This document shows, piece after piece, positions 8,555 to 64,000 of a stretch of 64,000 nt of DNA (position 1 is the first letter of the stretch; every line of letters starts with the position of its first letter). The translations under genes were made by a program, and so were the position numbers. The notes under the pieces are model-generated. The model saw nothing but the letters and a program-made list of their open reading frames with translations. It was not told the DNA's origin and ran no database searches. This stretch comes from Wocania sp. (GTDB lineage Bacteria > Bacteroidota > Bacteroidia > Flavobacteriales > Flavobacteriaceae), in NCBI GenBank assembly GCA_965224845.1, contig CBDDAJ010000036.1, forward strand, positions 32,724 to 96,723, in the 5' to 3' direction.

Positions 8555-9061
8555 TTAAGCCTTAGATTTTTCAGTGCAACAAGCCTTTTTACAATCGGCA
8601 GCACATGCCTTTTTCTCGGCATCAGTTTTATTAGCACAACACGCTTTAGTGCAATTGGCAGCACATGCTTTTTCTGCAGAAAACCCTTCAACCGTTTTCA
8701 TATCGCTAACTTTATAAATATCGGCAACTTTAGTTACGGTTTCTTCAAGAGAAATTGGTGTAACTTTAGCCTCATTATATTCAACCATAGCTAGTTTTCT
8801 GTCAAAATCTACTTTAGCAGATTTTACACCTTCCATTTTTGCTATTTTTTTCTCAATGGTTTTTGCGCATCCAATTTCGCAGGTCATACCATCAATAGTA
8901 AATTCTGCTTTTGCATATGTAGCATTAGGATCTAAAGTTTTTTCAGTAACAGCCTCATTTTCAACAGCAACAGTTTTAACTTCAGGCTTAGCTTCATTTT
9001 TACAATTTAAAGCAAAAAGTGTTATTAATGTAATCGCTATAATATTTTTAAATGTCTTCAT
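8555..9061 (-). CDS. Heavy-metal-associated (HMA) domain lipoprotein with Cys-rich C-terminal tandem repeat
   Basis: Signal/lipobox (LFALNC). HMA motif GMTCEIGCAKTIEK. C-terminal repeats ACAANCTKACCA / ACAADCKKACCT. Confidence 0.7.
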   Translation of the reverse strand: MKTFKNIIAITLITLFALNCKNEAKPEVKTVAVENEAVTEKTLDPNATYAKAEFTIDGMTCEIGCAKTIEKKIAKMEGVKSAKVDFDRKLAMVEYNEAKVTPISLEETVTKVADIYKVSDMKTVEGFSAEKACAANCTKACCANKTDAEKKACAADCKKACCTEKSKA

Positions 9062-9153: not shown

Positions 9154-10032
9154 GTGAGCAATATCAATTTAAAATGGGCGTATCTATTTATACTTTCGTT
9201 AGTTTGGGGTAGCTCGTTTATATTAATTAAAAAAGCACTTTTAGGCTTAACCCCATATCAACTGGGGGCTTTAAGAGTTATTATAACAGGTTTGTTTTTA
9301 TTTGCTATAGGATATAAAACTATAAAAACGATAAAACCTAAAGACTGGAAATGGTTAATAATTTCTGGGTTTCTCGGTACTTTTATTCCAGCTTTTTTCT
9401 TTGCTATTGCAGAAACCGAAATAGATAGCGCAGTAGTTTCTATTTTAAATTCGTTAGTACCTTTAAATACTATTTTGTTAGGCTTCGCCATTTTTAAAAT
9501 AACTTCAACAAAACGACAAATACTAGGTGTAATTGTTGGCTTTATTGGAACCGCGATATTAATTTTAAAAGGGGCTCATTTAAACCCTAATCAAAATTAC
9601 TTATATGCCATTTTTGTTATGCTGTCTACCATCATGTATGCTATCAATGTTAATATAATAAAGAAGCATTTGCAACATGTAAAACCATTAACTATAGCAA
9701 CAGGTAATTTTGCAGCCATAGTTATTCCTGGTGTTATAGTGTTATTGTTTACAGATTTCTTTTCAAAAACAACATTTAATAATCCTAATTTTAAAATGGC
9801 AATGGTATACATTACTATTTTATCCCTTTTTGGTACAGCTATAGCAAAAATATTGTTTAATAAGTTAGTCCATCTTTCAACACCGGTTTTCGCTTCGTCT
9901 GTTACTTATATTATGCCAGTTGTAGCTTTAATGTGGGGGTTTATTGATGGTGAAAGCTTTAGTTTTCTACAAGGCTTGGCCAGCTTAATTATCTTATTTG
10001 GTGTCTATTTATCTCATAAACGAAACGGATAA
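9154..10032 (+). CDS. EamA/DMT-superfamily transporter
   Basis: 292 aa, about 10 TM segments. Two EamA-like halves. Confidence 0.7.
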   Translation: MSNINLKWAYLFILSLVWGSSFILIKKALLGLTPYQLGALRVIITGLFLFAIGYKTIKTIKPKDWKWLIISGFLGTFIPAFFFAIAETEIDSAVVSILNSLVPLNTILLGFAIFKITSTKRQILGVIVGFIGTAILILKGAHLNPNQNYLYAIFVMLSTIMYAINVNIIKKHLQHVKPLTIATGNFAAIVIPGVIVLLFTDFFSKTTFNNPNFKMAMVYITILSLFGTAIAKILFNKLVHLSTPVFASSVTYIMPVVALMWGFIDGESFSFLQGLASLIILFGVYLSHKRNG

Positions 10033-10280
10033 TTTTATATAACAATCTTAAAATGAGGGATTTATTTTAAAAAAACTTTATCAGAAATTATTTTAAATCA
10101 ATTTTTTTTACGAAATTTAAGAACCTAATAAGTAAGTTTTGCGTTGAAACTTAACATAAATCTATTCTAAACTTCCTAAATTATATATAGTACATGACAC
10201 AATTTTAATATGAGGGCATCATGTTTTACAGAAGCTCTCCGTTTTTTAATTAATATTTAGTAATTAAAAGATTTAAGCAG

Positions 10281-10733
10281 ATGAAAACAATAACACTTCC
10301 AATCCGGTTTGGCCTCGTTACCAGTACAGTACTTATCGCATATTTTTTAATTTTAGCATTATTTAATAAACATACTAATCCCGTTTTTAGTTTTTTTAAT
10401 GCTATCATTACCGTTTTTGGAATCTATGAAGCCATTAGAATAAAAAAACTTAAAGACGCCGAACTTTTTTCTTATGGAGAAGGTTTTAAAACTGGTATTG
10501 TAACAGGCTTTGTTGCAACCTTATTTTTTACTCTATTTTTCTTGTTTTATGCAACCGAAATTAATCCTACCTTTTTGCCAAAGTTTCTTGAAAAAATCAA
10601 TGGTCAATTTAATTTAGATATTGGTATGATTACTTTTATTGTAGCTGTAATGGGACTGGCTACATCTGTAATTTCTACCCTTACGGTTATGCAGTTATTT
10701 AAAAATAGCAGAAATATTCTTCAAAACAAATAA
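10281..10733 (+). CDS. Hypothetical small integral membrane protein (DUF4199-like)
   Basis: 150 aa with four hydrophobic helices. No catalytic motifs. Confidence 0.45.
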   Translation: MKTITLPIRFGLVTSTVLIAYFLILALFNKHTNPVFSFFNAIITVFGIYEAIRIKKLKDAELFSYGEGFKTGIVTGFVATLFFTLFFLFYATEINPTFLPKFLEKINGQFNLDIGMITFIVAVMGLATSVISTLTVMQLFKNSRNILQNK

Positions 10734-51264: not shown

Positions 51265-51294
51265 AAATTAATCTGATATTATTTATAACCTTAA

Positions 51295-51386
51295 ATACAA
51301 AAGCTATGATTTATATGTCATAGCTTTTGTTTGTTTTGCTTACTCAATATGGCACCCGACACAGTCGAGCGCTAGCGGGGTTCAAT
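51295..51386. repeat. Junction module copy a: 13-bp-stem hairpin (acaaaagctatga..tcatagcttttgt) plus GC-rich box GGCACCCGACACAGTCGAGCGCTAGCGGGG; marks the island/core boundary
   Basis: Read directly. Same bipartite module recurs at 51645-51763/53174-53212, 53786-53909 and 56575-56695/58106-58148. Confidence 0.8.
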
Positions 51387-51398
51387 TTTTGATATCAA

Positions 51399-51644
51399 CT
51401 AATTTGGACGGTGACCGTTAAGACTATCTTTATTTACCATATTAATACTATCTAATTTTACTTTAATAGAGTCTACTATATTAATATTTTTCTTCTTCAA
51501 ATCAGACTTAATTTCCTGAACAGCTTCAATTGTTTTAACTGAAGCTTTTCCAAACCCAACACTTGCATTATAATAAAAAAATGCTGTTGCTATTAACAAT
51601 AAAACAAATAGCGATATTAATATAATTTTATTTTTTTTCATCAT
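51399..51644 (-). CDS. Small (81 aa) signal-peptide/TM protein; reading frame is open upstream into an rhs-derived YIYDATGVKLKKIVS segment
   Basis: ORF track. Hand translation of the upstream minus strand gives ...SYNISHIYDATGVKLKKIVS directly in frame before MMKKNK. Confidence 0.4.
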   Translation of the reverse strand: MMKKNKIILISLFVLLLIATAFFYYNASVGFGKASVKTIEAVQEIKSDLKKKNINIVDSIKVKLDSINMVNKDSLNGHRPN

Positions 51645-51763
51645 GCTTACTATTTTTTTAAGCTTAACACCAGTGGCATCGTAAATATGAGAAATATTAT
51701 AACTATATGAAATACAAAAGCTACTCTAGTTTTTAGAATAGCTTTTGTTTATTTTGCTTACTC
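51645..51763. repeat. Junction module copy b, hairpin half plus rhs-derived segment (interrupted by IS at 51764)
   Basis: gcttactatttttttaagcttaacaccagtggcatcgtaaat...acaaaagctactctagtttttagaatagcttttgtttattttgcttaCTC. Confidence 0.75.
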
Positions 51764-51802
51764 TGTCTTGTCCTGAAATAGGTTTACACAAAAGTGTAAC
51801 AA

Positions 51803-52180
51803 ATGGAAAGATATACTAAGACATCTTCATCAAAATTTCAAAATAGATATAGTGAAGAGTTCAAACAATTTTTATGTAATGAATTTCTAACGGGAACTGC
51901 AACTAGAAAATCAATCGAAAAGAAGTATAATATAGGTAATAACCAATTGACTGTTTGGTTAAAGAAATTAGGATATGACTATTCAAAACCCAGTATTGTA
52001 CCTTTGCCCTCAATGGCAAATCAACCGGACAAATTATCAAATAAAGAAAAAAACTCTTTATCTCAATTAGAGAAGGAACTTGTAGAAGCTCGATTATTAG
52101 CTGAAACTTATAGGAAAATGATTGAAATTGCAGAGAATGAATTTAAAATAAAGATTGTAAAAAAGTCCAATACCAAGTAA
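51803..52180 (+). CDS. IS3-family transposase OrfA (HTH)
   Basis: 125 aa. HTH plus leucine-zipper-like C-terminus. Slippery AAAAAAG near the 3-prime end. Confidence 0.9.
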   Translation: MERYTKTSSSKFQNRYSEEFKQFLCNEFLTGTATRKSIEKKYNIGNNQLTVWLKKLGYDYSKPSIVPLPSMANQPDKLSNKEKNSLSQLEKELVEARLLAETYRKMIEIAENEFKIKIVKKSNTK

Positions 52181-52188
52181 TCCAAGAG

Positions 52189-53100
52189 ATGAAAAACCTA
52201 TATCCAAAGGTAAGCTTAGGCAGGTTCTGCCGATTACTTGGTGTTACCCGTCAAGCATATTATCAACATTTTTGGTATCGTGAACAATTATCTTTTGAAG
52301 AAGATTTAATTGTGTCCGAAGTACATAAGATTAGAAAAAATCATCGCCATATGGGAGGCAGAAAACTATATGAACTATTACAACCATTTTTATTAGCACA
52401 TCAAATAAAAATGGGAAGAGATCGGCTATTCGATATTTTATCAGCTAATTATCTTTTGGTTAGACGTAAAAAGAAACAAACAATAACTACAAATTCTTTC
52501 CATAGGTTTAAGAAATATTCAAACCTGATTAAGAAGTTTATTCCTGATAAACCAAATCAATTATGGGTAAGTGATATCACATATTGGAAAATCGAAACTG
52601 GTTTTGTTTATATTAGTTTTATAACAGATGCTTATTCTAGAAAAATTGTCGGTTATCATTTAGCTGATAGTTTAATGACCTCAGAGACAATCAAAGCATT
52701 ACAGATGGCAATATTCAATCTACCAGAAGGCTTAATAGATAAGTCTAAATTGATACATCATTCAGATAGAGGAACTCAGTATTGTAGTAACGAATATGTA
52801 AAATTGTTGCAAACCAATAACATTGAAATTAGTATGGCTGAAAACGGTGACCCGCTAGAAAATGCAATTGCAGAACGGGTTAATGGAATTATTAAGGAAG
52901 AATATCTCAACGATTATCAATTAGAGAATATAAAAACAGCTAAAGAATTACTTGATACTGTTGTTAATCTATATAATAATGAAAGACCACATATGAGCAT
53001 AGGTAATCTTACTCCTAATCAAGTACATCAAAACAATATAAAAATCGAAAAACTATGGAAAAATTATTATCTAAAAAGCCCTATTATTGTAAACCGATAA
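52189..53100 (+). CDS. IS3-family transposase OrfB (DDE/rve integrase core; expressed as OrfAB by -1 frameshift)
   Basis: Candidate DDE residues in WVSDITY, HSDRGTQY and the ...ENAIAERVNG region. Confidence 0.9.
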   Translation: MKNLYPKVSLGRFCRLLGVTRQAYYQHFWYREQLSFEEDLIVSEVHKIRKNHRHMGGRKLYELLQPFLLAHQIKMGRDRLFDILSANYLLVRRKKKQTITTNSFHRFKKYSNLIKKFIPDKPNQLWVSDITYWKIETGFVYISFITDAYSRKIVGYHLADSLMTSETIKALQMAIFNLPEGLIDKSKLIHHSDRGTQYCSNEYVKLLQTNNIEISMAENGDPLENAIAERVNGIIKEEYLNDYQLENIKTAKELLDTVVNLYNNERPHMSIGNLTPNQVHQNNIKIEKLWKNYYLKSPIIVNR

Positions 53101-53173
53101 TAGGACTAAGAATGAATTGTAAACCTATTTTAGGATTAATGTAAAACATGTAAACTTTTTTTAGGACGAGACA

Positions 53174-53212
53174 CTCATAACGGCACCCGTCACAGACGAG
53201 CGCTAGCGGGGG
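53174..53212. repeat. Junction module copy b, box half (variant GGCACCCGTCACAGACGAGCGCTAGCGGGGG)
   Basis: Directly abuts the IS right end after the CTC duplication. Confidence 0.75.
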
Positions 53213-53249
53213 ATGACCAGTTATCCACTAATTTAATCCGTTACCACCC

Positions 53250-53762
53250 CTAATAGTTAATTAATTTAGAGGTCATATAACTTACTAAAGCTTTATCTAA
53301 GGGGTTTGGTTTTACAATTAAAGACAAACATGTTTCTCCATACTTCGAACCATTTGAATCTCTCATTACAAAATAAAACATATTTCCTTTAGCTTCTTCA
53401 TAACCTTCTTTAAAGTAGTCTGATTCAAAACCTATAAAATCACTATGGTAATTGCTTTTGTCAAAAGATTTTAAGAGAATCTTGTTTGGTTTTTTTATTT
53501 TGTTAGAAGAAACAATATTGATTTCATCTCCTTTTAATTCAACAATTATTTCATTTACATCACTCTCCTTTTTAGATATCAACAAATAAAATGTATTAGA
53601 TATTGAAAATAGCAAGTAAGGTGTATCTGTATCCTTAATCACCTTTTTAGATATTAAACTTGCCTTATTCCTACTTTCAAGTTCGTATTTATTTAATTTT
53701 TGTGCAGAACAAGAATTGCAAACAACTAAAAAAGCCAGAATAAGAATTTTTGAATACTTCAT
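53250..53762 (-). CDS. Secreted 170-aa protein (candidate orphan immunity protein)
   Basis: Signal peptide with Cys (LAFLVVCNSCSA). Sits between two junction modules in the Rhs island. Confidence 0.4.
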   Translation of the reverse strand: MKYSKILILAFLVVCNSCSAQKLNKYELESRNKASLISKKVIKDTDTPYLLFSISNTFYLLISKKESDVNEIIVELKGDEINIVSSNKIKKPNKILLKSFDKSNYHSDFIGFESDYFKEGYEEAKGNMFYFVMRDSNGSKYGETCLSLIVKPNPLDKALVSYMTSKLINY

Positions 53763-53785: not shown

Positions 53786-53909
53786 GCATCGTAAATGTAA
53801 GAAATATTATAACTATATGAAATACAAAAGCTACTCTAGTTTTTAGAATAGCTTTTGTTTATTTTGCCTACTCATAACGGCACCCGACACAGTCGAGCGC
53901 TAGCAGGTG
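53786..53909. repeat. Junction module copy c, uninterrupted (rhs-derived segment + hairpin + ttattttgcctaCTCataac + box GGCACCCGACACAGTCGAGCGCTAGCAGG)
   Basis: Shows the unoccupied IS target: ...ctactc|ataacggcaccc.... Confidence 0.8.
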
Positions 53910-54158
53910 AAACATAAGATTATTAAACAATAAGTGTTTAAAACTCTTTCTATAAACTCAATAAATAATCATTGAAGTTTCTTAATTTAGTGTGGAATTA
54001 ATACAATGGAATAATGGCAAAACAAAAAAACTCAAATAGTAATTCAAATAGCAATTCTGGAAATAAAAATTCTAGTACTGGTTCTTCTACCTATAACTCC
54101 AATATCACTCGTACAGGGGCAGAATCAACTAAAGGTTCTGGTAGCGGTAATAGACCAT

Positions 54159-54659
54159 CTAAAACAGATAAAAATTAAACACTGTTAGTAAAACTAAACC
54201 TAAAAACATTAGTGATATAGAGACATAATTTAGTCTCTTCGTCCAAGTGTTTAAGTCTTGTATTTTATTATCTATGTTTTTGTGTTGACAGTCGTCTATT
54301 TTTTCTCCTTCCATTTTTTCTAACTCCTCTAAAATATATTTCTCTTCATTATTATTTGCACTATATCCAGTCATTTGAGAGATAAAATTTGATGCAATAG
54401 CTATTAAAAATGAAAGACCAGAGAATAGTAATAAATTAGGTTGGTCGATAGAAATATCTCCTGTTTTAAATTCTCTTAAGGTTTCAAAAATAATATATAA
54501 TCCAGCTCCACATATTGAAATAATTAACAAGTCCATTCTTCTTGTAGAATAGTTAGTTCTATCTCTTGTGTTTGTTAGATATTCTTTCCACTTATTATAC
54601 TTAAGTTCTTTCTTCCCTTTCATAGTATCTAAGATAGTAATTAAATTACTAAAATTCAT
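54159..54659 (-). CDS. Hypothetical 166-aa protein with two predicted TM segments (island cargo; possible immunity-type protein)
   Basis: ORF track; hydrophobic segments. No enzymatic motifs. Confidence 0.4.
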   Translation of the reverse strand: MNFSNLITILDTMKGKKELKYNKWKEYLTNTRDRTNYSTRRMDLLIISICGAGLYIIFETLREFKTGDISIDQPNLLLFSGLSFLIAIASNFISQMTGYSANNNEEKYILEELEKMEGEKIDDCQHKNIDNKIQDLNTWTKRLNYVSISLMFLGLVLLTVFNFYLF

Positions 54660-54754: not shown

Positions 54755-54903
54755 CAAAAACAAAAAACGAGCGCACATATTGTACACTCGTTTCTTTTCT
54801 TAGTTTAAATATTATACAGTTTATTATTTACTTACTTTATTTCATTACCATATCATTTTATGGTGTGTGTGGATATGGAATGGATTATTTATGCGTTTGG
54901 GTT
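54755..54903. repeat. Conserved about 150-bp 3-prime cassette tail A (about 90% identical to 58256-58415), containing a bidirectional terminator aacgagcgcacatattgtacactcgtt
   Basis: Read directly; aligned by eye to copy B. Confidence 0.75.
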
Positions 54904-54905
54904 CT

Positions 54906-55241
54906 CTATTTACATTTCTCTATTCCTAAAATCTTATATAAATTTCTTTTCGAAATAAATACTTCTTTGTTTTTAACAAACAAATCTTCATCAATATAGA
55001 AAACAAGAGTGTCTTCTTCTTTGATAGCCTTTATGCTATAAGTAGTATTATATTTTAAATAAACATCATTGAGTTTAGAGTTTTTAATCGCTCTCTCAAA
55101 TTGATTAATTGTCTTTTCATCATCAATTCTTTTTTGAAAAGTATCACACCCATAAATTTCAAGTGCTATAAATTCATTTTTAATATAATTATTACAATTA
55201 GAAAATAGAAATACAATTAGTAATGTTAAATATAGTCTCAT
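54906..55241 (-). CDS. Putative immunity lipoprotein (111 aa) for the orphan Rhs toxin tip
   Basis: Lipobox LFSNC. Immediately (1 nt) downstream of the orphan rhs-CT ORF. Confidence 0.5.
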   Translation of the reverse strand: MRLYLTLLIVFLFSNCNNYIKNEFIALEIYGCDTFQKRIDDEKTINQFERAIKNSKLNDVYLKYNTTYSIKAIKEEDTLVFYIDEDLFVKNKEVFISKRNLYKILGIEKCK

Positions 55242-56369
55242 TTAATCCATTTTTATTTTATCAAACCACGTCAAGCTTTTTGTTTTTTCATCGTGTACTT
55301 TTTGTGCGCTCTTATTAACTTTTTCGCCAGGGTCTACTATTACAGTTGAGCCTTTAATTCTTCCCAAATCTCTAAAGAGTTTTGTTTGCGTTCTAACAGT
55401 TTTTTTTCTGTCTTTATAATCAATAACAGATTCTTTACCAAAGCTATCAAGTTTTTTAGGAAAAGCTCTCATGCAAAAATCTGAACAATTGTTATCAATA
55501 AAATTATAAAATTCTGTTCCTTCTTTTTGTTCTAGTAACTTTTTAGCTTTTTCATCATATTTACCAGATGTTTTTATTTGAATAGCTCCGTCAAATGATG
55601 AAATACCCTTTATAGAATTATTCTTTATATCTTCCAATGTTACTCCCTCTTGAATGCCTACATCTCCTTTTACTGTTTTGTTAAAAGATTTTAATGAAAT
55701 TCTATTATCACGTCCACCTGCTGGTGAAAAATCGTATAGAGTATATGTTCCATCTTCAATATAATTACCATCTTTATCCTCTAAATAGTTTCCTTCATCA
55801 TCTTTTTTGTAATTTGAAACCGCTAAAGCCGCATGTCCAACATCTTCTCTTCCTTCTCCTGGCAACCAAATAATCAAAATAACATCATTACCATCTGGGT
55901 CAATGACATTAATTGGATTGTTAATGGCATAATTGTATGGAGATTTATCAAAATGATTTTCAGATAATAAATCTAAATTCATCCACCTGCCCAAAGCAGC
56001 ATCATAATTCCTAGCAGTTACATCATACCAGCCTAATCCTAACTCATCCTGATACTCCTTACCACCAAACTTATACTTAAGCGCTGGACTCGTAGAATTA
56101 ACCACCGTATTATACCCTTTATGTTTAAGTCCAAAGGGATAGTAGTTGTTTTCTTCCAGGATTTCAGAAGTTGTTATAACACCATTATTGTTATTATCCT
56201 TATAACTCAACCTTATATTCCCTAAATGGTCTTTATATTGATATACATAGCTATAACTGCTCCCATTAACATCTACATAGCCTTCCGGGTGGGAATACTG
56301 TATATTCCTTAAAATACCACTATTAAAACGCCCCTTTTCACCCCATACTTTAAAATAAAAAGAAGCCAT
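55242..56369 (-). CDS. Orphan Rhs C-terminal cassette: end of RHS core plus distinct about 200-aa toxin domain
   Basis: Region HPEGYVDVNGSSYSYVYQYKDHLGNIRLSYKDNNNNGVITTSEILEENNYYPFGLKHKGYN is near-identical to the main RHS protein, followed by ARNYDAALGRW...NNPINVIDPDGN and a unique C-terminus. Confidence 0.75.
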   Translation of the reverse strand: MASFYFKVWGEKGRFNSGILRNIQYSHPEGYVDVNGSSYSYVYQYKDHLGNIRLSYKDNNNNGVITTSEILEENNYYPFGLKHKGYNTVVNSTSPALKYKFGGKEYQDELGLGWYDVTARNYDAALGRWMNLDLLSENHFDKSPYNYAINNPINVIDPDGNDVILIIWLPGEGREDVGHAALAVSNYKKDDEGNYLEDKDGNYIEDGTYTLYDFSPAGGRDNRISLKSFNKTVKGDVGIQEGVTLEDIKNNSIKGISSFDGAIQIKTSGKYDEKAKKLLEQKEGTEFYNFIDNNCSDFCMRAFPKKLDSFGKESVIDYKDRKKTVRTQTKLFRDLGRIKGSTVIVDPGEKVNKSAQKVHDEKTKSLTWFDKIKMD

Positions 56370-56692
56370 AGCTACAGCTATGCTTTAGTTTTCTTTTTCG
56401 CCTGAGGCAAAAATCATTCGTTTTTATTACATGCCATTTTAAGCAATATCCAGTATACAGAATTTCAATGAACCGTTTTACTCACACCATTCTATTTGAT
56501 AAATAAGTGTTCGTGAACCTCATTTTATTTCGGTTTCGTATACATAATTGCCTACATAATCAGTTGTTGCTCCCGTGCTTACTATTTTTTTAAGCTTAAC
56601 ACCAGTGGCATCGTAAATGTAAGAAATATTATAACTTTATAAAACACAAAAGCTACTCTAGTTTTTAGAATAGCTTTTGTTTATTTTGCTTA
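56370..56692 (-). pseudogene. Degenerate 5-prime remnant of the orphan rhs cassette (YIYDATGVKLKKIVSTGATTDYVGNYVYE then stop and insertions)
   Basis: Hand translation. Nucleotide similarity to main rhs at 59690-59830 is interrupted by stop and inserted segments. Confidence 0.6.
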
Positions 56693-56695
56693 CTC
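56575..56695. repeat. Junction module copy d, hairpin half (interrupted by IS copy 2 at 56696)
   Basis: Identical hairpin and ttattttgcttaCTC as copy b. Confidence 0.75.
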
Positions 56696-56734
56696 TGTCT
56701 TGTCCTGAAATAGGTTTACACAAAAGTGTAACAA

Positions 56735-57112
56735 ATGGAAAGATATACTAAGACATCTTCATCAAAATTTCAAAATAGATATAGTGAAGAGTTCAAACAA
56801 TTTTTATGTAATGAATTTCTAACGGGAACTGCAACTAGAAAATCAATCGAAAAGAAGTATAATATAGGTAATAACCAATTGACTGTTTGGTTAAAGAAAT
56901 TAGGATATGACTATTCAAAACCCAGTATTGTACCTTTGCCCTCAATGGCAAATCAACCGGACAAATTATCAAATAAAGAAAAAAACTCTTTATCTCAATT
57001 AGAGAAGGAACTTGTAGAAGCTCGATTATTAGCTGAAACTTATAGGAAAATGATTGAAATTGCAGAGAATGAATTTAAAATAAAGATTGTAAAAAAGTCC
57101 AATACCAAGTAA
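56735..57112 (+). CDS. IS3-family transposase OrfA (copy 2)
   Basis: Protein identical to 51803..52180. Confidence 0.9.
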   Translation: MERYTKTSSSKFQNRYSEEFKQFLCNEFLTGTATRKSIEKKYNIGNNQLTVWLKKLGYDYSKPSIVPLPSMANQPDKLSNKEKNSLSQLEKELVEARLLAETYRKMIEIAENEFKIKIVKKSNTK

Positions 57113-57120
57113 TCCAAGAG

Positions 57121-58032
57121 ATGAAAAACCTATATCCAAAGGTAAGCTTAGGCAGGTTCTGCCGATTACTTGGTGTTACCCGTCAAGCATATTATCAACA
57201 TTTTTGGTATCGTGAACAATTATCTTTTGAAGAAGATTTAATTGTGTCCGAAGTACATAAGATTAGAAAAAATCATCGCCATATGGGAGGCAGAAAACTA
57301 TATGAACTATTACAACCATTTTTATTAGCACATCAAATAAAAATGGGAAGAGATCGGCTATTCGATATTTTATCAGCTAATTATCTTTTGGTTAGACGTA
57401 AAAAGAAACAAACAATAACTACAAATTCTTTCCATAGGTTTAAGAAATATTCAAACCTGATTAAGAAGTTTATTCCTGATAAACCAAATCAATTATGGGT
57501 AAGTGATATCACATATTGGAAAATCGAAACTGGTTTTGTTTATATTAGTTTTATAACAGATGCTTATTCTAGAAAAATTGTCGGTTATCATTTAGCTGAT
57601 AGTTTAATGACCTCAGAGACAATCAAAGCATTACAGATGGCAATATTCAATCTACCAGAAGGCTTAATAGATAAGTCTAAATTGATACATCATTCAGATA
57701 GAGGAACTCAGTATTGTAGTAACGAATATGTAAAATTGTTGCAAACCAATAACATTGAAATTAGTATGGCTGAAAACGGTGACCCGCTAGAAAATGCAAT
57801 TGCAGAACGGGTTAATGGAATTATTAAGGAAGAATATCTCAACGATTATCAATTAGAGAATATAAAAACAGCTAAAGAATTACTTGATACTGTTGTTAAT
57901 CTATATAATAATGAAAGACCACATATGAGCATAGGTAATCTTACTCCTAATCAAGTACATCAAAACAATATAAAAATCGAAAAACTATGGAAAAATTATT
58001 ATCTAAAAAGCCCTATTATTGTAAACCGATAA
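57121..58032 (+). CDS. IS3-family transposase OrfB (copy 2)
   Basis: Protein identical to 52189..53100. Confidence 0.9.
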   Translation: MKNLYPKVSLGRFCRLLGVTRQAYYQHFWYREQLSFEEDLIVSEVHKIRKNHRHMGGRKLYELLQPFLLAHQIKMGRDRLFDILSANYLLVRRKKKQTITTNSFHRFKKYSNLIKKFIPDKPNQLWVSDITYWKIETGFVYISFITDAYSRKIVGYHLADSLMTSETIKALQMAIFNLPEGLIDKSKLIHHSDRGTQYCSNEYVKLLQTNNIEISMAENGDPLENAIAERVNGIIKEEYLNDYQLENIKTAKELLDTVVNLYNNERPHMSIGNLTPNQVHQNNIKIEKLWKNYYLKSPIIVNR

Positions 58033-58105
58033 TAGGACTAAGAATGAATTGTAAACCTATTTTAGGATTAATGTAAAACATGTAAACTTTTTTTAGGACG
58101 AGACA

Positions 58106-58148
58106 CTCATAACGGCACCCGTCACAGACGAGCGCTAGCAGGTTATTC
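58106..58148. repeat. Junction module copy d, box half (variant GGCACCCGTCACAGACGAGCGCTAGCAGG)
   Basis: Abuts the IS copy 2 right end. Confidence 0.75.
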
Positions 58149-58255: not shown

Positions 58256-58415
58256 ACAAAACAAAAAACGAGCGCACATTAAGTACACTCGTTTTCTTTT
58301 CTTAGTTTAATATATTATACAGTTATTTACTTATCTTACTTTATTTCATTTACCATATCTAGTGATGTGTGTGGATATGGAATGGATTATTTATGCGTTT
58401 GGGTTAATAAATAAA
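58256..58415. repeat. Conserved 3-prime cassette tail B (pairs with 54755-54903) with bidirectional terminator
   Basis: Aligned by eye; about 90% identity over about 150 bp. Confidence 0.75.
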
Positions 58416-58434: not shown

Positions 58435-58752
58435 CTATTTTGTATGACCAAACCTTATAACTTTACAGTCTGATTTTTGAATCTCAATAAATGGAACACC
58501 ACCAACATCGTAATTTAAAGTCCCTTCTACTAACCATACTTTGTCATCTTCTATTGACCTAGCCTTTAAAGGTAAGCTTTCATCGATTCTTTCTCCATAA
58601 ACTGAATAAAGAAGGGTACTTGCAACTTTAAGAGCGACTTGTTCATCATCAACAATACCTTTTTTTTCATTATTAGAGTTTCCTGCTTGAAATGATAAAC
58701 ACAGAATTGTCAAAATAAATACAACACTTAAAATCTTTAGATTAAATTTCAT
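58435..58752 (-). CDS. Putative immunity lipoprotein (105 aa) for the main Rhs toxin
   Basis: Lipobox (LTILCLSFQAG). 11 nt downstream of the RHS stop. Confidence 0.5.
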   Translation of the reverse strand: MKFNLKILSVVFILTILCLSFQAGNSNNEKKGIVDDEQVALKVASTLLYSVYGERIDESLPLKARSIEDDKVWLVEGTLNYDVGGVPFIEIQKSDCKVIRFGHTK

Positions 58753-58763
58753 TATTACAATTT

Positions 58764-61700
58764 TTATAATTTCTCTTCTTCTATCCCTTTTGGTTCTAGG
58801 TTATTAACTGGTTCTACTTTTTCTCTACTCCCATCAGGATTAATATTATTTACCCTTACAGGCGAATTGGGGTCACTAGGAACATTTGTTGAAACTATGG
58901 TTACTTTTCCAGTTATAGGGTCTATTTTTTGAACAGTTCCACTTGGTGTAACAACATAAGTCGGCAATCCAATTTCCTTAGTTCTTTCTACATCGTTATA
59001 AGATGGCTCATTATCAGCATCCGTCTCTCCCTCAATAGTTTCCTTTTCATCATTTCCGTGAGTATGAATATCTCCTGAAGGCTCACTACCTTTCGGAATT
59101 GAGCTTTCATCTGGGATAAAAGCACCAGCCTCACTACCTATTAACGGTTCAACATAGGAATATGTTGTTTCGCCATTTTTTGTAGTAGAATAGAAAATAG
59201 AAGCATACTCTCTTTTACTTGTTATTGAAACTCCATTATATTGTTTTCCAAAATTTACTGCTGCATCATCAACAGATTTATGAACAGAATGTGGCTCTAA
59301 ACCTTCAAGTTCTCTAGCATCTATGACTCTATTTCCACTAAATACATATGGTCCCCAATCCATATATTCTTCTGTTAATGGGTCTATTGTCATAAATCTA
59401 CCAATTGCTGGGTCGTGATTTCTCCATTTAAATTGTATCCAGTTTAACCCTAACTCATTTTGTTCTTCTTGCTCTTGGAATCCATACGGATGGTCTGTAC
59501 CATTTATAACATTGTTATACCCTTTATGTTTCAGTCCAAATGGATAGTAGTTGTTTTCTTCCAGGATTTCAGAAGTTGTTATAACACCATTATTGTTATT
59601 ATCCTTATAACTCAACCTTATATTCCCTAAATGGTCTTTGTATTGATATACATAGCTATAACTGCTCCCATTAACATCTACATAACCTTCCGGGTGATTA
59701 AAGAATTTCAAAGAACCGCCTTCGTATACATAATTGCCTGCATAATCAGTGGTAGTTGATGTACTACTATTGTTATACACAAGCTTTCTCAGTTTTATGC
59801 CTGTGGCATCATAAATATACTTAATTTTTTTGTTATTATTGTTATCAAATTTTACTTCATCAGGAAGATTTAAATGGTTATAGCTAACCCCATTAACTGA
59901 GGCAGTACCAATGCCCTTATTCAAGTCTTTAACCATATTGCCGTTAGCATCATAAGTGTATTCTGTGGTTGTATTAGAGCCATCTTTAAAGCCATAAGTA
60001 TCATTTCCATTATCTAATACTTTTTTAAGCCTATTACTATTGGTTTCATAGGTATAAACCAGATTGTCCATCACCCCAAAACTTGTAGCTCCACTATTGG
60101 TATGTCCTCTTCTCTGTAAATCAGTGATGTTTCCATTCTTATCATAGGCAACCGAGGTTAGGTTATAATTACTGGTATTCCCCGTAGCTCCTGTAATTCT
60201 ATTTAAAGCATCGTAAGTATATTTATACCACTTTAAGCCCTGGTCTGTGTTTTTGGTCTTCCACTCGGTCTCAGAGATATTGCCGTTATACAAAGGGGTA
60301 CCGCTATGACTAACTGTATTGTAATTTATTTTAAAACTAAATAAATCTGTTCCTAAGCTTGATGGATCATTTATTTGTTTAAGCCAGCCGCGAACATTAT
60401 AAGCGTAATTTACAGTTTGTAAGCGATTAGCATGAGATGATTTACCACCTACCCCTTTACTTTCTAACTGGCCTAAATTGTTGTAAACATTATCAACAAT
60501 GGTTTCCTGTTCTAAACTGTTTAGGGTTTGTTTTTGTCTTAACAGCCTGCCTTCATGGTCGTAAACAAAAACATCTCGTGTTGTAATGCTGGTTTGCCCG
60601 GTTTTAGAATGTGTGGTTTTTGTTTTATCAACTTTACCCACAAAATCCAGTTTGCTCTCTACAATGTCTGTTGTTTGTAAATAATCATTAATAGTTTTTA
60701 TATAAATAGGGCGTCCTTTTACATCATATCCTGTTATGGTGGTAATCCACTTTGCAGGGTTAGAGTTATCTAATACTCGTACTTTACTTCCTGTAGCCAG
60801 ACCTTTGGTTAATTTTTGAGTAGCACTCGCATTATTGTAATTAATAACCGCCTGCCCCTCGATACTGGAAGGCAGATTTGTAAATCCATTAAAGGAATAA
60901 TTATCATAATAGTTAATAGTATATACTTTTGATATGTTCGTTTTTGGATACACCAGATTATCATTACTGTAATATATATTAGCGCCTCCTAAACTAACAG
61001 ATGTACTGCTTTTAGTTACATATTGCAATGCCGTGGTATTTGCAGCATTTTGTAAAAAGGTTCTGCTAGAGTTAGTCGTTACAAGTCCGGTATAGGCTAC
61101 CCTTCCAAAAGCATCATATTTAGTGAATAGCCACGCATTGGTTGACGGGACACGTTGGTTAGCATCTTGTGTCATTATAGGCTGATCTAGCTTATTATAT
61201 ACTATATATTCACAGCCTTTACCCGGTATTTTCTTTTCTACCAGACGGTTTCTTTTATCGTAGGTATACTGATAGCACAAGGCATTAAGTTCTGAGGTGG
61301 TTGGTTTATCTGTTGTCGCTTCTGATTTTGGGGGCAATACAAAACTTAAGTTCCCATAATCATCATATACATAATAGGTGTCGTGCGCTACATTGGTTTG
61401 TGTTACACCATTTACTTTTGAGGTACCATAGCTGCGTTTTAAAATAACGCGCCCTTGCTTGTCTTTAAATTCTTCGGTGGTATTTGCTGTTCCGCTAGTC
61501 CAATTCTCATCTTTAGTAATGGTTTTATAAAGGGTACCAGCCTTATAATATCCGCCATCTACTGCTGTGTTTAAGATCAAAGCAGGCGTGTAGGTAGTCA
61601 CTCCATTTGTTGTGGCAGCACTTAAGTTTACTTCATAACGTCTTATCGTGTTTGCTGTGTTGGTTTGGTAATCAAACTTAATTTCTTTTCCGCCACCCAG

Positions 61701-62354
61701 TTTCCAATCTTTTCCCGGAGCGGCTTGTTTTAATACCCTGTTAAGTGGTGAGGCTTCAAACGCTTTTTGAGCATAGGCATTAATATTGTTTAGGACCACT
61801 GACGGAAAATCTGTAGCATAATTGGATAAATAATACTGTTTGGTTGCTGTAGCTTTATTTCCACGATAGGCGCCAATATTTCCCGTGGCTTCCATATAGG
61901 GAAGCCAGTCCTTATCGGGTCTTCCGTAAGTATCATAATCGATATGGGTAATAATATCTTTTTTGCCCGGTGCAGATTTAATCCCTATATTTTGCATGGG
62001 CCTGCCCAGGCCATCAAAATAAGTAATTTGCTCTATAACATCGCCTTCTTTAGCAGTAGCAGAATTAAAGCTCGTCATAGGTTTTTGATAGCGTCGTGTA
62101 AATACATAATTTTCATTACTAAACGTCATAGAGGTATAGGGGTCTGTTGCTGTTGTTGGTTCTATAATTTGAGCGGTAAAGGTACTACCGCTTTTTATCC
62201 ATGTATTGGGTTTTAATGTAATACTATGGGTCGCTATTAAGGTTTCTGTTCCGGTTACCGTATAGGCATTTTCTTTAACTATAGTTGTTGGTGTTTGTGC
62301 AATAACTATTTGAGCTAACAGCAAAAAGGCTATGGTATATATATATTGTTTCAT
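58764..62354 (-). CDS. RHS/YD-repeat protein (1196 aa) with Sec signal peptide, RHS repeat-associated core and polymorphic C-terminal toxin domain
   Basis: Signal peptide MKQYIYTIAFLLLAQIVIAQT. Many YD repeats (YxYDxxGR/N). Core end WRNHDPAIGRFMTIDP. Unique C-terminal about 190 aa. Confidence 0.85.
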   Translation of the reverse strand: MKQYIYTIAFLLLAQIVIAQTPTTIVKENAYTVTGTETLIATHSITLKPNTWIKSGSTFTAQIIEPTTATDPYTSMTFSNENYVFTRRYQKPMTSFNSATAKEGDVIEQITYFDGLGRPMQNIGIKSAPGKKDIITHIDYDTYGRPDKDWLPYMEATGNIGAYRGNKATATKQYYLSNYATDFPSVVLNNINAYAQKAFEASPLNRVLKQAAPGKDWKLGGGKEIKFDYQTNTANTIRRYEVNLSAATTNGVTTYTPALILNTAVDGGYYKAGTLYKTITKDENWTSGTANTTEEFKDKQGRVILKRSYGTSKVNGVTQTNVAHDTYYVYDDYGNLSFVLPPKSEATTDKPTTSELNALCYQYTYDKRNRLVEKKIPGKGCEYIVYNKLDQPIMTQDANQRVPSTNAWLFTKYDAFGRVAYTGLVTTNSSRTFLQNAANTTALQYVTKSSTSVSLGGANIYYSNDNLVYPKTNISKVYTINYYDNYSFNGFTNLPSSIEGQAVINYNNASATQKLTKGLATGSKVRVLDNSNPAKWITTITGYDVKGRPIYIKTINDYLQTTDIVESKLDFVGKVDKTKTTHSKTGQTSITTRDVFVYDHEGRLLRQKQTLNSLEQETIVDNVYNNLGQLESKGVGGKSSHANRLQTVNYAYNVRGWLKQINDPSSLGTDLFSFKINYNTVSHSGTPLYNGNISETEWKTKNTDQGLKWYKYTYDALNRITGATGNTSNYNLTSVAYDKNGNITDLQRRGHTNSGATSFGVMDNLVYTYETNSNRLKKVLDNGNDTYGFKDGSNTTTEYTYDANGNMVKDLNKGIGTASVNGVSYNHLNLPDEVKFDNNNNKKIKYIYDATGIKLRKLVYNNSSTSTTTDYAGNYVYEGGSLKFFNHPEGYVDVNGSSYSYVYQYKDHLGNIRLSYKDNNNNGVITTSEILEENNYYPFGLKHKGYNNVINGTDHPYGFQEQEEQNELGLNWIQFKWRNHDPAIGRFMTIDPLTEEYMDWGPYVFSGNRVIDARELEGLEPHSVHKSVDDAAVNFGKQYNGVSITSKREYASIFYSTTKNGETTYSYVEPLIGSEAGAFIPDESSIPKGSEPSGDIHTHGNDEKETIEGETDADNEPSYNDVERTKEIGLPTYVVTPSGTVQKIDPITGKVTIVSTNVPSDPNSPVRVNNINPDGSREKVEPVNNLEPKGIEEEKL

Positions 62355-62360
62355 GGCGTA

Positions 62361-64000
62361 TTAGTTTTTATAGTTATACTTGTTCTCACTTATCAAATTA
62401 CCATTGGCATCTTTTACAAATTCAAGGCGATTAAAGGCATCATACTCATAATCCATCCTATAGCCTTTAGGGTCGGTTATACTGGTTACACCAACTAAAG
62501 GGTCGTAGGTATAGCTGGTTACCATGGCGTTGGGGAAGCCTACTCTTAATAATTGAAGTTTGGCTCGTAAAGTATTTTCTGTGGCTTCTGTGGTTTCATT
62601 AACTGTAGCAGCTACTGCATTATTTATTAAAACTTGCTGTGTGCTTGTAATGGTATTGGGTTTACCCGAAGTAAAAGTGGCATTCTCAATCTTGGCTATA
62701 GGGTATTGTTTGCTATAACCCCAAACATAAACTATACTCGTACCATCTGCTTTAGAAACTTCTATGGGGTTGCTTTTATCATCATAGCTATGATAGGTTA
62801 TTCGAGATTCTAAAGCCGTGGACCTTTTTGAGGTTTGAATATGTTCCGGTAGTATAATATTTGTATCGGCCGGAAGTCCTAAATCTAAATCCCAATCTTT
62901 ATAATTGGTGCGTTGGGTAGATAATAACTCCTCGGGGTTTGTTCCTTTTTTTTGATAGGTTTCCGTTTTTATTAATGTGGCTATTCGATTTTGTGATATT
63001 AAGGCCGTATTAATACTATTAGTTATATTATAAGGGTAAAAGAATTTACTTTTAATTTCTTTATTTGTTGAAGTCGTATTAGTGCTTGAAGTGATTTGAT
63101 TATATGGGGTATCATAGGCATAGGTTGTTTCTGTAGTAGAGGGGGTACCATTAAAGTATAATGTTTTGGTTTGTTTTATCAGCCTGCTACTTTTAGAGGA
63201 ATTGAGGTATTTTGTGTCTTTATAATCATTAGGGTCGCCTTCTATTAGAGAGGCATTAGCTCCGTTAACATTCCACCTCCAGGAATTTCTGCCTACTGCT
63301 AATCCGTAGGCCTTTATTGGTAATTGATGAAAAATATTACCGTAGGTCCAAATATCCTGATAAGTGCTTGTATGCAATTCTTGAAGCTCATACCCTGTAC
63401 CGGTAGATTTAAAAATTTCTTTTTTCCACAACCTGCCATCTTCCCATGTACTATAAGGGTCTTGCACAAAAGGAAATGAATGAGCATCTGTACTATTCCT
63501 GTAATAGTGTATGCTTGCATTATTATAGTAACCGGAAAAGCTAAAATAGTCCACTTGTTTTCCTGATAAGCCGGCATCTTTTATTGTTTCAACCCTATTA
63601 TAAAGCACAGGTGATCCCTGATAGCCAGTAAATGAATCTGCACTACTTGCCGTAGTAATTGTTTTGTTTCCAGTGTTAAGGTGGGTCGTTGGGCTTCCAC
63701 TAACTGAATACTGTTTTGGCAAATGATCTTTATCGGTTAGTTTACCACTACTAATACCACTAGCATCATTGTATTTATAGTTGCTTGTGTAGCTATTCCC
63801 TTTTCCATCGTAATCAATAGTTGACGCTACCCGAATACCTCCTACAGGTGTATTTAGTACCGTTTTATCTTCGTATTCAATCTCAATATCACAATATACA
63901 TGGCTTCCTGTATTTGCAGAAATTGATCCTGCAATAGTAATTTGCCCGTTATTTGTAAACCTAAATTGTTCTTGAGACACTTTATTTTCATTATTATAAT
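62361..64000 (-). CDS. YD-repeat-containing protein, 5-prime partial (reading frame runs off the window edge); upstream partner of the RHS protein
   Basis: No stop between the listed GTG at 63980 and position 64000. C-terminal YD repeats YTYDPLVGVTSITDPKGYRMDYEYDAFNRLEF. In frame with the RHS gene, separated by TAA-TAC-GCC. Confidence 0.7.
   Translation of the reverse strand, partial: YNNENKVSQEQFRFTNNGQITIAGSISANTGSHVYCDIEIEYEDKTVLNTPVGGIRVASTIDYDGKGNSYTSNYKYNDASGISSGKLTDKDHLPKQYSVSGSPTTHLNTGNKTITTASSADSFTGYQGSPVLYNRVETIKDAGLSGKQVDYFSFSGYYNNASIHYYRNSTDAHSFPFVQDPYSTWEDGRLWKKEIFKSTGTGYELQELHTSTYQDIWTYGNIFHQLPIKAYGLAVGRNSWRWNVNGANASLIEGDPNDYKDTKYLNSSKSSRLIKQTKTLYFNGTPSTTETTYAYDTPYNQITSSTNTTSTNKEIKSKFFYPYNITNSINTALISQNRIATLIKTETYQKKGTNPEELLSTQRTNYKDWDLDLGLPADTNIILPEHIQTSKRSTALESRITYHSYDDKSNPIEVSKADGTSIVYVWGYSKQYPIAKIENATFTSGKPNTITSTQQVLINNAVAATVNETTEATENTLRAKLQLLRVGFPNAMVTSYTYDPLVGVTSITDPKGYRMDYEYDAFNRLEFVKDANGNLISENKYNYKN

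Follow-up and report, generated by a model that had tools for sequence, protein, structure and literature searches.

We report a displaced rhs 3' end in a 64-kb stretch of a Wocania sp. contig, hereafter the window. The open reading frame (ORF) at 55242..56369 is what remains of an RHS gene at its 3' end: signal peptide, DUF6443 domain and shell have been lost, while the 215-residue toxin tip is undamaged. We consider it probable, at roughly 0.8, that this ORF and the small gene behind it form an orphan cassette of the rhs-CT type (a detached C-terminal toxin end) that encodes a permuted papain-like cysteine hydrolase toxin together with its immunity gene. The elements that we observe here, namely the ORF, the block it shares with a resident full-length RHS gene, the tip and the junction modules, are not due to chance. 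All coordinates refer to the window, and features lie on the minus strand unless the plus strand is named.

An RHS core remnant in front of an undamaged tip

The ORF call, a match to TIGR03696 (RHS repeat-associated core) and alignments delimit an orphan ORF of 375 amino acids (55242..56369). Its residues 1-25 are derived from junk sequence and have no homolog, residues 26-160 are a remnant of the RHS core ending in PINVIDPDG, and residues 161-375 constitute the toxin tip. TIGR03696 covers residues 76-160 with 54.8 bits against a cut-off of 32.5, and the boundary motif PxxxxDPxG(L) is present as P-INVI-DPDG-N (residues 152-161); the consensus of the tip family at this boundary is NNPIxxIDPDGxD. 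From HPEGY to the stop codon the frame is open over 350 codons. The 375 residues contain no signal peptide, DUF6443, PAAR or other loading domain.

The resident full-length gene (58764..62354) encodes 1196 amino acids with a signal peptide, DUF6443 (148 bits), RHS/YD repeats, the TIGR03696 core and a DUF4329 tip. The immunity gene that goes with it (58435..58752) belongs to Imm-NTF2-2 (58 bits). The orphan ORF lies on the same strand as this operon, about 2 kb further downstream. Residues 27-87 of the orphan are identical to residues 887-947 of the resident protein. The first-pass annotation of the window had described the last 60 or so residues of the core as near-identical between the two; the identity holds over all 61 residues, but the block is situated in the core region's first half and not at its end. 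The core continues for approximately 73 residues past the block to DPDG160, and this stretch is only about 37% identical to the resident gene.

Upstream of the ORF, a degenerate rhs 5' stub (56370..56607) reads (N)ISYIYDATGVKLKKIVSTGATTDYVGNYVYE in the frame of the ORF. After these codons come stops and about 200 nucleotides without counterpart in the resident gene, apart from a possible GSLKF remnant. The earlier suggestion of a broken upstream region with homology to the resident rhs gene is thus borne out for the breakage, but the stub is closer to a database protein, P0004, than to the resident gene. The core remnant, the boundary and the 215-residue tip do identify the ORF as an rhs 3' fragment with a different tip, as had been proposed. 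The TIGR03696 match and the co-oriented position downstream of a full-length DUF6443-RHS gene likewise agree with the classic Rhs displacement architecture in a flavobacterial context, PorZ and further genes of the type IX secretion system (T9SS) being found among the neighbours in this flavobacterial-type genome.

The tip belongs to a widespread toxin-domain family

The tip as analysed (DPDGND...KIKMD, 55245..55901, 219 amino acids) contains His179 in the motif VGHAALAV (codon 55833-55835) and Cys295 in NNCSDFC (codon 55485-55487). The two are spaced by 116 residues, which fits the annotated conserved His followed by a Cys motif about 100 residues later. A word-indexed protein search with the tip as query returned only the tip itself. 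When 1.84 billion cluster representatives were scanned exhaustively with HMMER, 132 clusters came up at E<=1e-3, 43 of which reach E<=1e-10, and in nearly all of the 132 the match ends less than about 20 residues from the C-terminus. Gly178-His179, Tyr187 and Asn294-Cys295 (ORF numbering), invariant in the tip, are invariant or nearly so throughout the family: all 127 sequences keep His179 and 124 of 125 keep Cys295, and both are invariant also in A1 and A2.

Many database members are short (200-500 amino acids), and 11 are long (1159-3779 amino acids). Seven long proteins were scanned, revealing DUF6443 in four (P0004, P0034, P0061 and P0092, three of them also with RHS repeats) and RHS repeats alone in two more. 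Tip ORFs of 1079-2142 amino acids are encoded at the loci L015, L045, L046, L060, L067 and L081. Both observations on which the earlier proposal had been made to depend, conserved catalytic residues across homologs and homologs at the C-termini of full-length Rhs proteins, are therefore present, the former as invariant residues and the latter as DUF6443-RHS proteins.

In a profile search, which had been suggested as a check, no Pfam or NCBIfam model reaches its threshold for the tip. Weak Pfam matches are scattered among 36 members of the family: PPPDE in 13, Lnb_N in six, TseH in four and LRAT in one. PPPDE/Peptidase_C97 (PF05903) gives the window tip 13.0-13.6 bits against a gathering threshold of 29.2, with E = 0.0031 for the best member. 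The TseH model (PF25218) stays below its gathering threshold in the four members (best E = 0.017) and leaves the window tip unmatched, and the LRAT model (PF04970) is equally below threshold in its single member (E = 0.17). A match of the tip to Ribosomal_L5_C was dismissed as noise. Searches of PDB sequences with the tip and with its profile gave chance matches alone (ethylene-forming enzyme and ribosomal protein L5). Judged from its distribution and conservation, the tip seems to be a real and widespread toxin domain that is absent from the Pfam and NCBIfam catalogues.

Predicted fold, active site and site of action

The AlphaFold2 (AF2) model of the tip has a predicted local distance difference test (pLDDT) score of 90.8; a model from the single sequence had a pLDDT of 33 and was unusable. 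The top Foldseek match of the AF2 model is TseH (probability 0.99), a type VI effector of Vibrio cholerae (PDB 6v98, PF25218) to which the tip is 13% identical, with no match at the sequence level. PPPDE, TseH, LRAT and related families are circularly permuted papain-like enzymes of the NlpC/P60 superfamily, with the His located before the Cys. Predicted fold and conservation together show the tip as a putative permuted papain-like cysteine hydrolase with a His179/Cys295 dyad, and TseH as its closest solved relative. The earlier remark that the order of His and Cys resembles permuted papain-like LRAT/NlpC-P60 folds agrees with both the Foldseek result and the weak Pfam matches, except that the nearest solved structure is TseH and not LRAT. 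Compared with PPPDE/DeSI, the YiiX-like proteins (DUF1105) and LRAT/PLAAT, the window tip is larger (about 215 amino acids), has a beta-rich insert between His and Cys, and is used as the tip of a polymorphic toxin.

TseH has a conserved GHA(G/A) motif, and its H64A catalytic mutant serves as inactive control; it is toxic only when directed to the periplasm, lyses permeabilised cells, and is neutralised by TsiH, which the downstream gene encodes (PMC4453574; bioRxiv 2021.05.27.445954; PMC7702109). From the periplasm it causes rounding and lysis of cells, and it is a stand-alone effector (PMC4453574). TseH is hence a free-standing cargo of the type VI secretion system, whereas the window tip domain is fused to RHS shells. 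Because the toxicity of TseH is confined to the periplasm, and because the proteins encoded next to the tip appear to be exported lipoproteins, the tip would by analogy act in the envelope of the target cell.

A candidate immunity gene next to the tip

The candidate cognate immunity gene (54906..55241) starts on the base after the TAA stop of the toxin and encodes 111 amino acids. Its N-terminus, MRLYLTLLIVFLFSNC, resembles a signal peptide, with Cys16 following a hydrophobic stretch and FSN at positions -3 to -1. A word-indexed protein search with the 111-residue protein returned only the query. Its single clear homolog, also of 111 amino acids and 67% identical, occurs in Mariniflexile sp. 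HMF6888 (L001; NZ_JBIQVZ010000005.1, 10001-10501), where what precedes it, across the same TAA-ATG junction, is the final ~35-58 codons of a tip that has decayed (…NPGKEVNKSAQKVHDEKTKSLVWYDKIKMN*), with no RHS gene nearby. This locus is an end state of cassette decay. The toxin remnant and the homolog therefore imply that the linkage of the tip with a small exported protein is conserved across genera, and that the immunity gene outlives the toxin.

The same arrangement is found more widely, since a co-oriented ORF of 85-172 amino acids starts within a few bases of the tip stop in 75 of 80 metagenomic tip loci. A single family of downstream ORFs (71 of 79) had seemed to emerge, but this grouping was inflated by signal peptides, and after trimming of the latter the ORFs split into two families with 46 (~122 amino acids) and 27 (~144 amino acids) members (loci L004-L083). 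A Cys close to the position of Cys16 is present in 69 of 71 downstream ORFs elsewhere, and nearly all have a hydrophobic N-terminus ending in Cys. Neither lipoprotein family is covered by a Pfam model. The tip thus has partners from at least two or three lipoprotein families, the two named above being unrelated to each other. We infer from the conserved linkage that the 111-residue lipoprotein-like protein may neutralise the tip.

Conserved arms and possible recombination with the resident gene

Two conserved arms are shared by the resident and orphan copies. The left arm (56110..56291, 182 nucleotides) is 97.8% identical to positions 59515-59696 of the resident gene, forming a direct repeat 3405 bp from its partner. 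The right arm (54757..54903), of 147-151 nucleotides, is 89% identical to 58258-58405 behind the resident immunity gene; it follows the immunity gene in both copies and carries the terminator, in the orphan copy a terminator-like hairpin at 54796-54762. Both arms flank the variable part, composed of core end, tip and immunity gene, in the resident as well as the orphan copy, which is the layout expected under module exchange by double crossover.

Being a direct repeat, the 182-nucleotide block is a substrate for homologous recombination. A RecA-type crossover between its two copies would remove the DUF4329 tip, its immunity gene and the insertion sequence (IS) that lies between the copies, and would join the resident shell to the orphan tip in frame, because both copies translate the block identically. 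The cassette may in this way serve as a reserve that is activated by recombination with the resident gene, and its immunity gene could separately protect against neighbours firing the same toxin.

The resident RHS protein combines a Sec-type signal peptide with DUF6443 and is without PAAR/VgrG or a T9SS C-terminal domain. It is preceded by another gene (62361-63980) of at least 539 amino acids, with RHS repeats at its end. Searching the literature for DUF6443 together with RHS yielded nothing.

Origin and fate of the cassette

The 5' stub is 79% identical to P0004 (NISYIYDATGTKLKKVVSTGATTEYAANFVYES) and 69%, with a gap, to the resident gene (IKYIYDATGIKLRKLVYNNSSTSTTTDYAGNYVYE). Moreover, the orphan and P0004 (1335 amino acids) align colinearly at the C-terminus of the latter, with 51% identity over 354 residues, including core end and tip. 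As both stub and core end are nearer to P0004, the cassette seems to be the tail of a P0004-like rhs allele, and it is only the 182-nucleotide block that is homogenised with, or recently co-ancestral to, the resident gene. The cassette can be described as what is left of the 3' part of a full-length DUF6443-RHS gene, former or foreign, that now sits behind the resident RHS operon. The G+C content of the cassettes is 27-29%, compared with 33-37% in the flanking housekeeping genes.

Homologs of the tip in other loci are mostly short ORFs in arrays of core stubs, spaced by 1.2-1.6 kb and located behind a full-length gene (L045, L051/L053, L066 and L078); the orphan-array architecture is typical for this toxin family. 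The window array continues with small ORFs encoding a 166-residue membrane protein (54159-54659), a 170-residue lipoprotein (53250-53762) and an 81-residue membrane protein (51399-51644). The rhs stub has shrunk to 4 and 14 codons in front of the 170- and 81-residue ORFs, respectively. All three are probably further orphan immunity remnants; they have neither a Pfam family nor a homolog in the fetched loci. A short Ser-Asn-repeat ORF on the plus strand (54014-54178, MAKQKNSNSNSNSNSGNK...) overlaps the end of the 166-residue ORF and is probably a low-complexity artefact.

Several observations speak against the cassette being a displaced toxin and immunity pair of the kind proposed here. The likeness to TseH is confined to the fold level, the PDB sequence searches being empty and the Pfam TseH and PPPDE matches below threshold. 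At three positions where the family is well conserved the tip deviates (TPN replaced by TQT at 327-329, and E by K at 254), although its closest relatives vary at 327-329 and 254 as well. The 111-residue protein had been annotated as a lipobox protein directly downstream, and while the ORF and its position stand, the lipobox FSNC is non-canonical. Its relation to the larger immunity family is weak (hhalign probability 60-83%, hmmsearch 6-11 bits). With the 5' stub nearer to another allele than to the resident gene, the cassette need not have been displaced from the resident gene itself. Concerning the substrate, the permuted papain-like fold has members that act on peptides or on lipids and others that are acyltransferases.

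Peptidoglycan is the likeliest substrate of the tip, at a little short of even odds. The tip could instead be directed at lipids or acyl groups, as a phospholipase/acyltransferase or lipoprotein deacylase comparable to LRAT/PLAAT, MARTX RID and CLN5, but we regard this as rather unlikely, for TseH as the best structural match rounds and lyses cells from the periplasm, and LRAT was matched in one of the 36 members only.

A second alternative, somewhat improbable as well, is that the toxin part is a pseudogene in a decaying relic, with selection acting on the orphan immunity gene alone as a defence against neighbours and no usable reserve left. The Mariniflexile locus, with its last ~35-58 toxin codons and intact immunity gene, is precisely such an end state, and further along the window array small lipoprotein and membrane ORFs alone remain behind rhs stubs of 4-14 codons. 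Within the cassette, the 5' stub is already interrupted by stops and the tip departs from the family consensus at the three positions named above. However, the frame stays open through all 350 codons between HPEGY and the stop, with every invariant residue kept, a confident fold is predicted for the tip, and the 97.8% identity of the 182-nucleotide block with the resident gene suggests recent exchange.

Junction modules, hairpin and insertion sequences

A module of about 125 nucleotides occurs in four copies in the window, in this array alone, against 0 expected by chance; the earlier description of a cassette bracketed by junction modules is consistent with this, the upstream copy being split by the IS. 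On the rhs-sense strand the module consists of CCyGCTAGCGC and a hairpin of 9 bp (loop TGT), then an A-rich linker, and finally a terminator-like hairpin leading into NISYIYDA. Module 1 (58144..56608) is divided by the IS into a 5' half (58105..58144) with CCyGCTAGCGC and the conserved 9-bp hairpin, and a 3' half (56608..56695) with the terminator-like hairpin 2 (56680-56646) that runs into the rhs stub. Module 2 (53786..53912) is uninterrupted, with hairpin 1, hairpin 2 and the stub NISYIYDA followed by the 170-residue lipoprotein ORF. Module 3 (53213..51676) is split by a second IS and followed by the stub IYDATGVKLKKIVS, which is fused to the 81-residue membrane ORF (feature to 51644). Module 4 (51283..51384) is degenerate. 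Rfam gave sub-threshold terminator-like matches alone for the module (RefA9 and L20 leader).

The IS in module 1 (56696..58104, plus strand) is 1409 bp long, with orfA at 56735-57112 and orfB at 57121-58032. Its inverted repeats are TGTCTyGTCCT (ends TGTCTTGTCCT / AGGACGAGACA), and its target-site duplication is CTC (56693-56695 and 58105-58107). The proteins match rve (80 bits) and, below the threshold of 24.1 bits, HTH_Tnp_1 (20.3 bits). Its orfA/orfB organization, TG...CA inverted-repeat ends and 3-bp duplication place it in the IS3 family by sequence features. The second copy (51764-53172, plus strand) is 100% identical over 1409 bp and likewise flanked by CTC. The two copies occupy identical positions in diverged modules, and the 158 nucleotides flanking them differ at 6 positions. 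Segmental duplication of IS-flanked modules was rejected as an explanation, because the IS copies are identical and yet the flanks differ at 6 of 158 positions. We read this as two recent and independent insertions at the same module position, so that the module appears to be a target of the IS. The two copies are direct repeats, and they could delete the intervening 3.5 kb including the orphan cassette.

In the conserved hairpin element, CCCCGCTRGCGC precedes a 9-bp stem with a 3-nucleotide loop, a near-fixed G.U pair and otherwise free inner sequence, and the element marks the 3' end of cassettes. Its copies in the window are located at 58105-58144, 53870-53909, 53173-53212 and 51342-51381, and a covariance-model scan found it absent from the other ~60 kb. 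In other, unrelated contigs it occurs at L001:10502-10541, at L066:5581-5620, 8738-8777 and 10452-10491, at six sites in L002, and just 3' of an immunity gene at L037:3984-4023, L038:1497-1536 and L061:1525-1564. The L066 hairpins lie between cassettes, and the Mariniflexile hairpin follows the orphan immunity gene directly. The copies in L002, L037, L038 and L061 were found by a covariance model built from those of the window, Mariniflexile and L066. Over 16 distinct copies, 144 of 144 cells pair and six of the nine pairs show compensatory changes (slid controls, 32-50%); this alignment is model-fitted, so that the count leans toward structure, and a hand alignment of five copies agrees. The fixed G.U pair makes the structure specific for the sense strand. 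The hairpin could be an element of transcript end or stability, or a recombination site as suspected in rAID arrays (for recombinase-associated acquired interbacterial defence). These arrays of Bacteroidales have intergenic repeats "reminiscent of integrons" and an adjacent tyrosine recombinase (bioRxiv 10.1101/471110; PMC12247911).

The resemblance raises the alternative that cassettes were inserted by integron- or rAID-like site-specific recombination at the module hairpin, and not displaced by homologous recombination in the rhs core. The hairpin and its CCCCGCTRGCGC flank stand at cassette ends in the window (four copies), Mariniflexile, L002, L037, L038, L061 and L066, they are missing from the remaining ~60 kb of the window, and the complete pairing with compensatory changes in six of nine pairs and the low G+C content of the cassettes (27-29% against 33-37% in the flanks) fit a mobile unit of this kind, as does the combination of intergenic repeats and tyrosine recombinase in rAID arrays (bioRxiv 10.1101/471110). 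In addition, L003 has a tyrosine recombinase immediately upstream of a short tip ORF, but this recombinase-bearing locus is without the hairpin. Nor was a recombinase found among the annotated neighbours at 36-64 kb (ORFs at 1-36 kb were outside the Pfam scan). The three identical module/NISYIYDA junctions and the two arms fit a double homologous crossover of imported segments equally well, and the hairpin could be a terminator or a transcript-stabilising element; insertion at the hairpin is therefore, in our opinion, unlikely. More speculative still, and quite unlikely, is that the hairpin is an attC-like site, acting as folded single-stranded DNA or RNA, by which RHS arrays of Flavobacteriia are shuffled in integron fashion with the core stub travelling along, and that the IS3 element has evolved to target it.

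In the L003 locus itself (contig_9779 of ERZ25039527, 7142-12194), Phage_integrase stands upstream of P0134, the short tip ORF, and of a series of small ORFs in the same orientation. With two weak Y1-transposase-like genes in the vicinity, this is a rAID-like context for the same toxin family.

Expression of the orphan cassette

Terminator-like hairpins follow both immunity genes and also occur inside the module, and two of them lie upstream of the orphan, at 58297-58263 after the resident immunity gene and at 56680-56646 in the junction module. The Bacteroidetes -7 motif TAnnTTTG is lacking on the minus strand in 56370-56700, and sigma-70-like sites are about as frequent as expected by chance (42 versus 33.8 +/- 6.2). 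With these two hairpins and the IS upstream and no promoter motif, the orphan cassette is probably silent, i.e. not transcribed. Since signal peptide, DUF6443 and shell are missing, the 375-residue ORF would not be exportable on its own.

It is very unlikely that this ORF is an independently expressed small effector, translated from the ATG at 56369 and exported by another route like the type VI-loaded TseH: although many family members are short (200-500 amino acids), TseH itself stands alone (PMC4453574), and the ~200 nucleotides of foreign sequence just before the ATG could hold a promoter, the short homologs start inside the RHS core and belong either to arrays that follow full-length genes or to truncated contigs, the ORF has no signal peptide, PAAR or loading domain, its first 25 residues have no homolog, TAnnTTTG is absent and sigma-70-like sites are at chance in the region upstream, and no type VI genes are found among the neighbours scanned.

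Comparison with known systems and significance

Enterobacterial orphan rhs-CT/immunity modules, the displacement model and activation by recombination are said to go back to Jackson in 2009, Poole in 2011 and Koskiniemi in 2014, and Koskiniemi et al. reportedly set out the recombination mechanism for Salmonella orphan Rhs toxins. The window resembles the enterobacterial orphans of Salmonella, E. coli and Dickeya in that a full-length rhs gene with its immunity gene is followed by a co-oriented core fragment with another tip and its own immunity gene, and in the direct core repeat that could join the shell to the orphan tip. It differs from them in the host, which is of the Bacteroidota/Flavobacteriia type, and in having a Sec signal and DUF6443 where the enterobacterial proteins have a PAAR/VgrG-linked N-terminus. 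The repeat block of the window also lies 73 residues before the core end, with stub and core end stemming from another allele, and a conserved hairpin module and the IS stand between the cassettes.

The rAID arrays (Ross et al. 2019) share with the window the co-oriented short orphan genes for immunity proteins and toxin fragments, the low G+C content and the repeated intergenic motifs. In contrast to them, the window array lies directly behind a full-length RHS gene and has no tyrosine recombinase among the neighbours scanned (36-64 kb).

The orphan rhs-CT/immunity architecture itself is textbook knowledge and not new, and hence our finding mainly confirms the known dynamics of orphan cassettes. 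It extends these dynamics of RHS toxins to the Sec-exported DUF6443-RHS proteins of Bacteroidota. What makes the locus interesting is, first, a TseH-like toxin family that is unclassified and has lipoprotein partners and, second, the conserved hairpin between the cassettes. The family defined here, with about 130 clusters and no covering Pfam or NCBIfam model, is a candidate for a new database family. Its putative His/Asn-Cys active site, predicted TseH-like fold and adjacent lipoprotein families make up an effector/immunity system ready for experiments, and the inter-cassette hairpin offers a concrete way to test how arrays of this type come about, be it through homologous displacement or through site-specific capture of cassettes.

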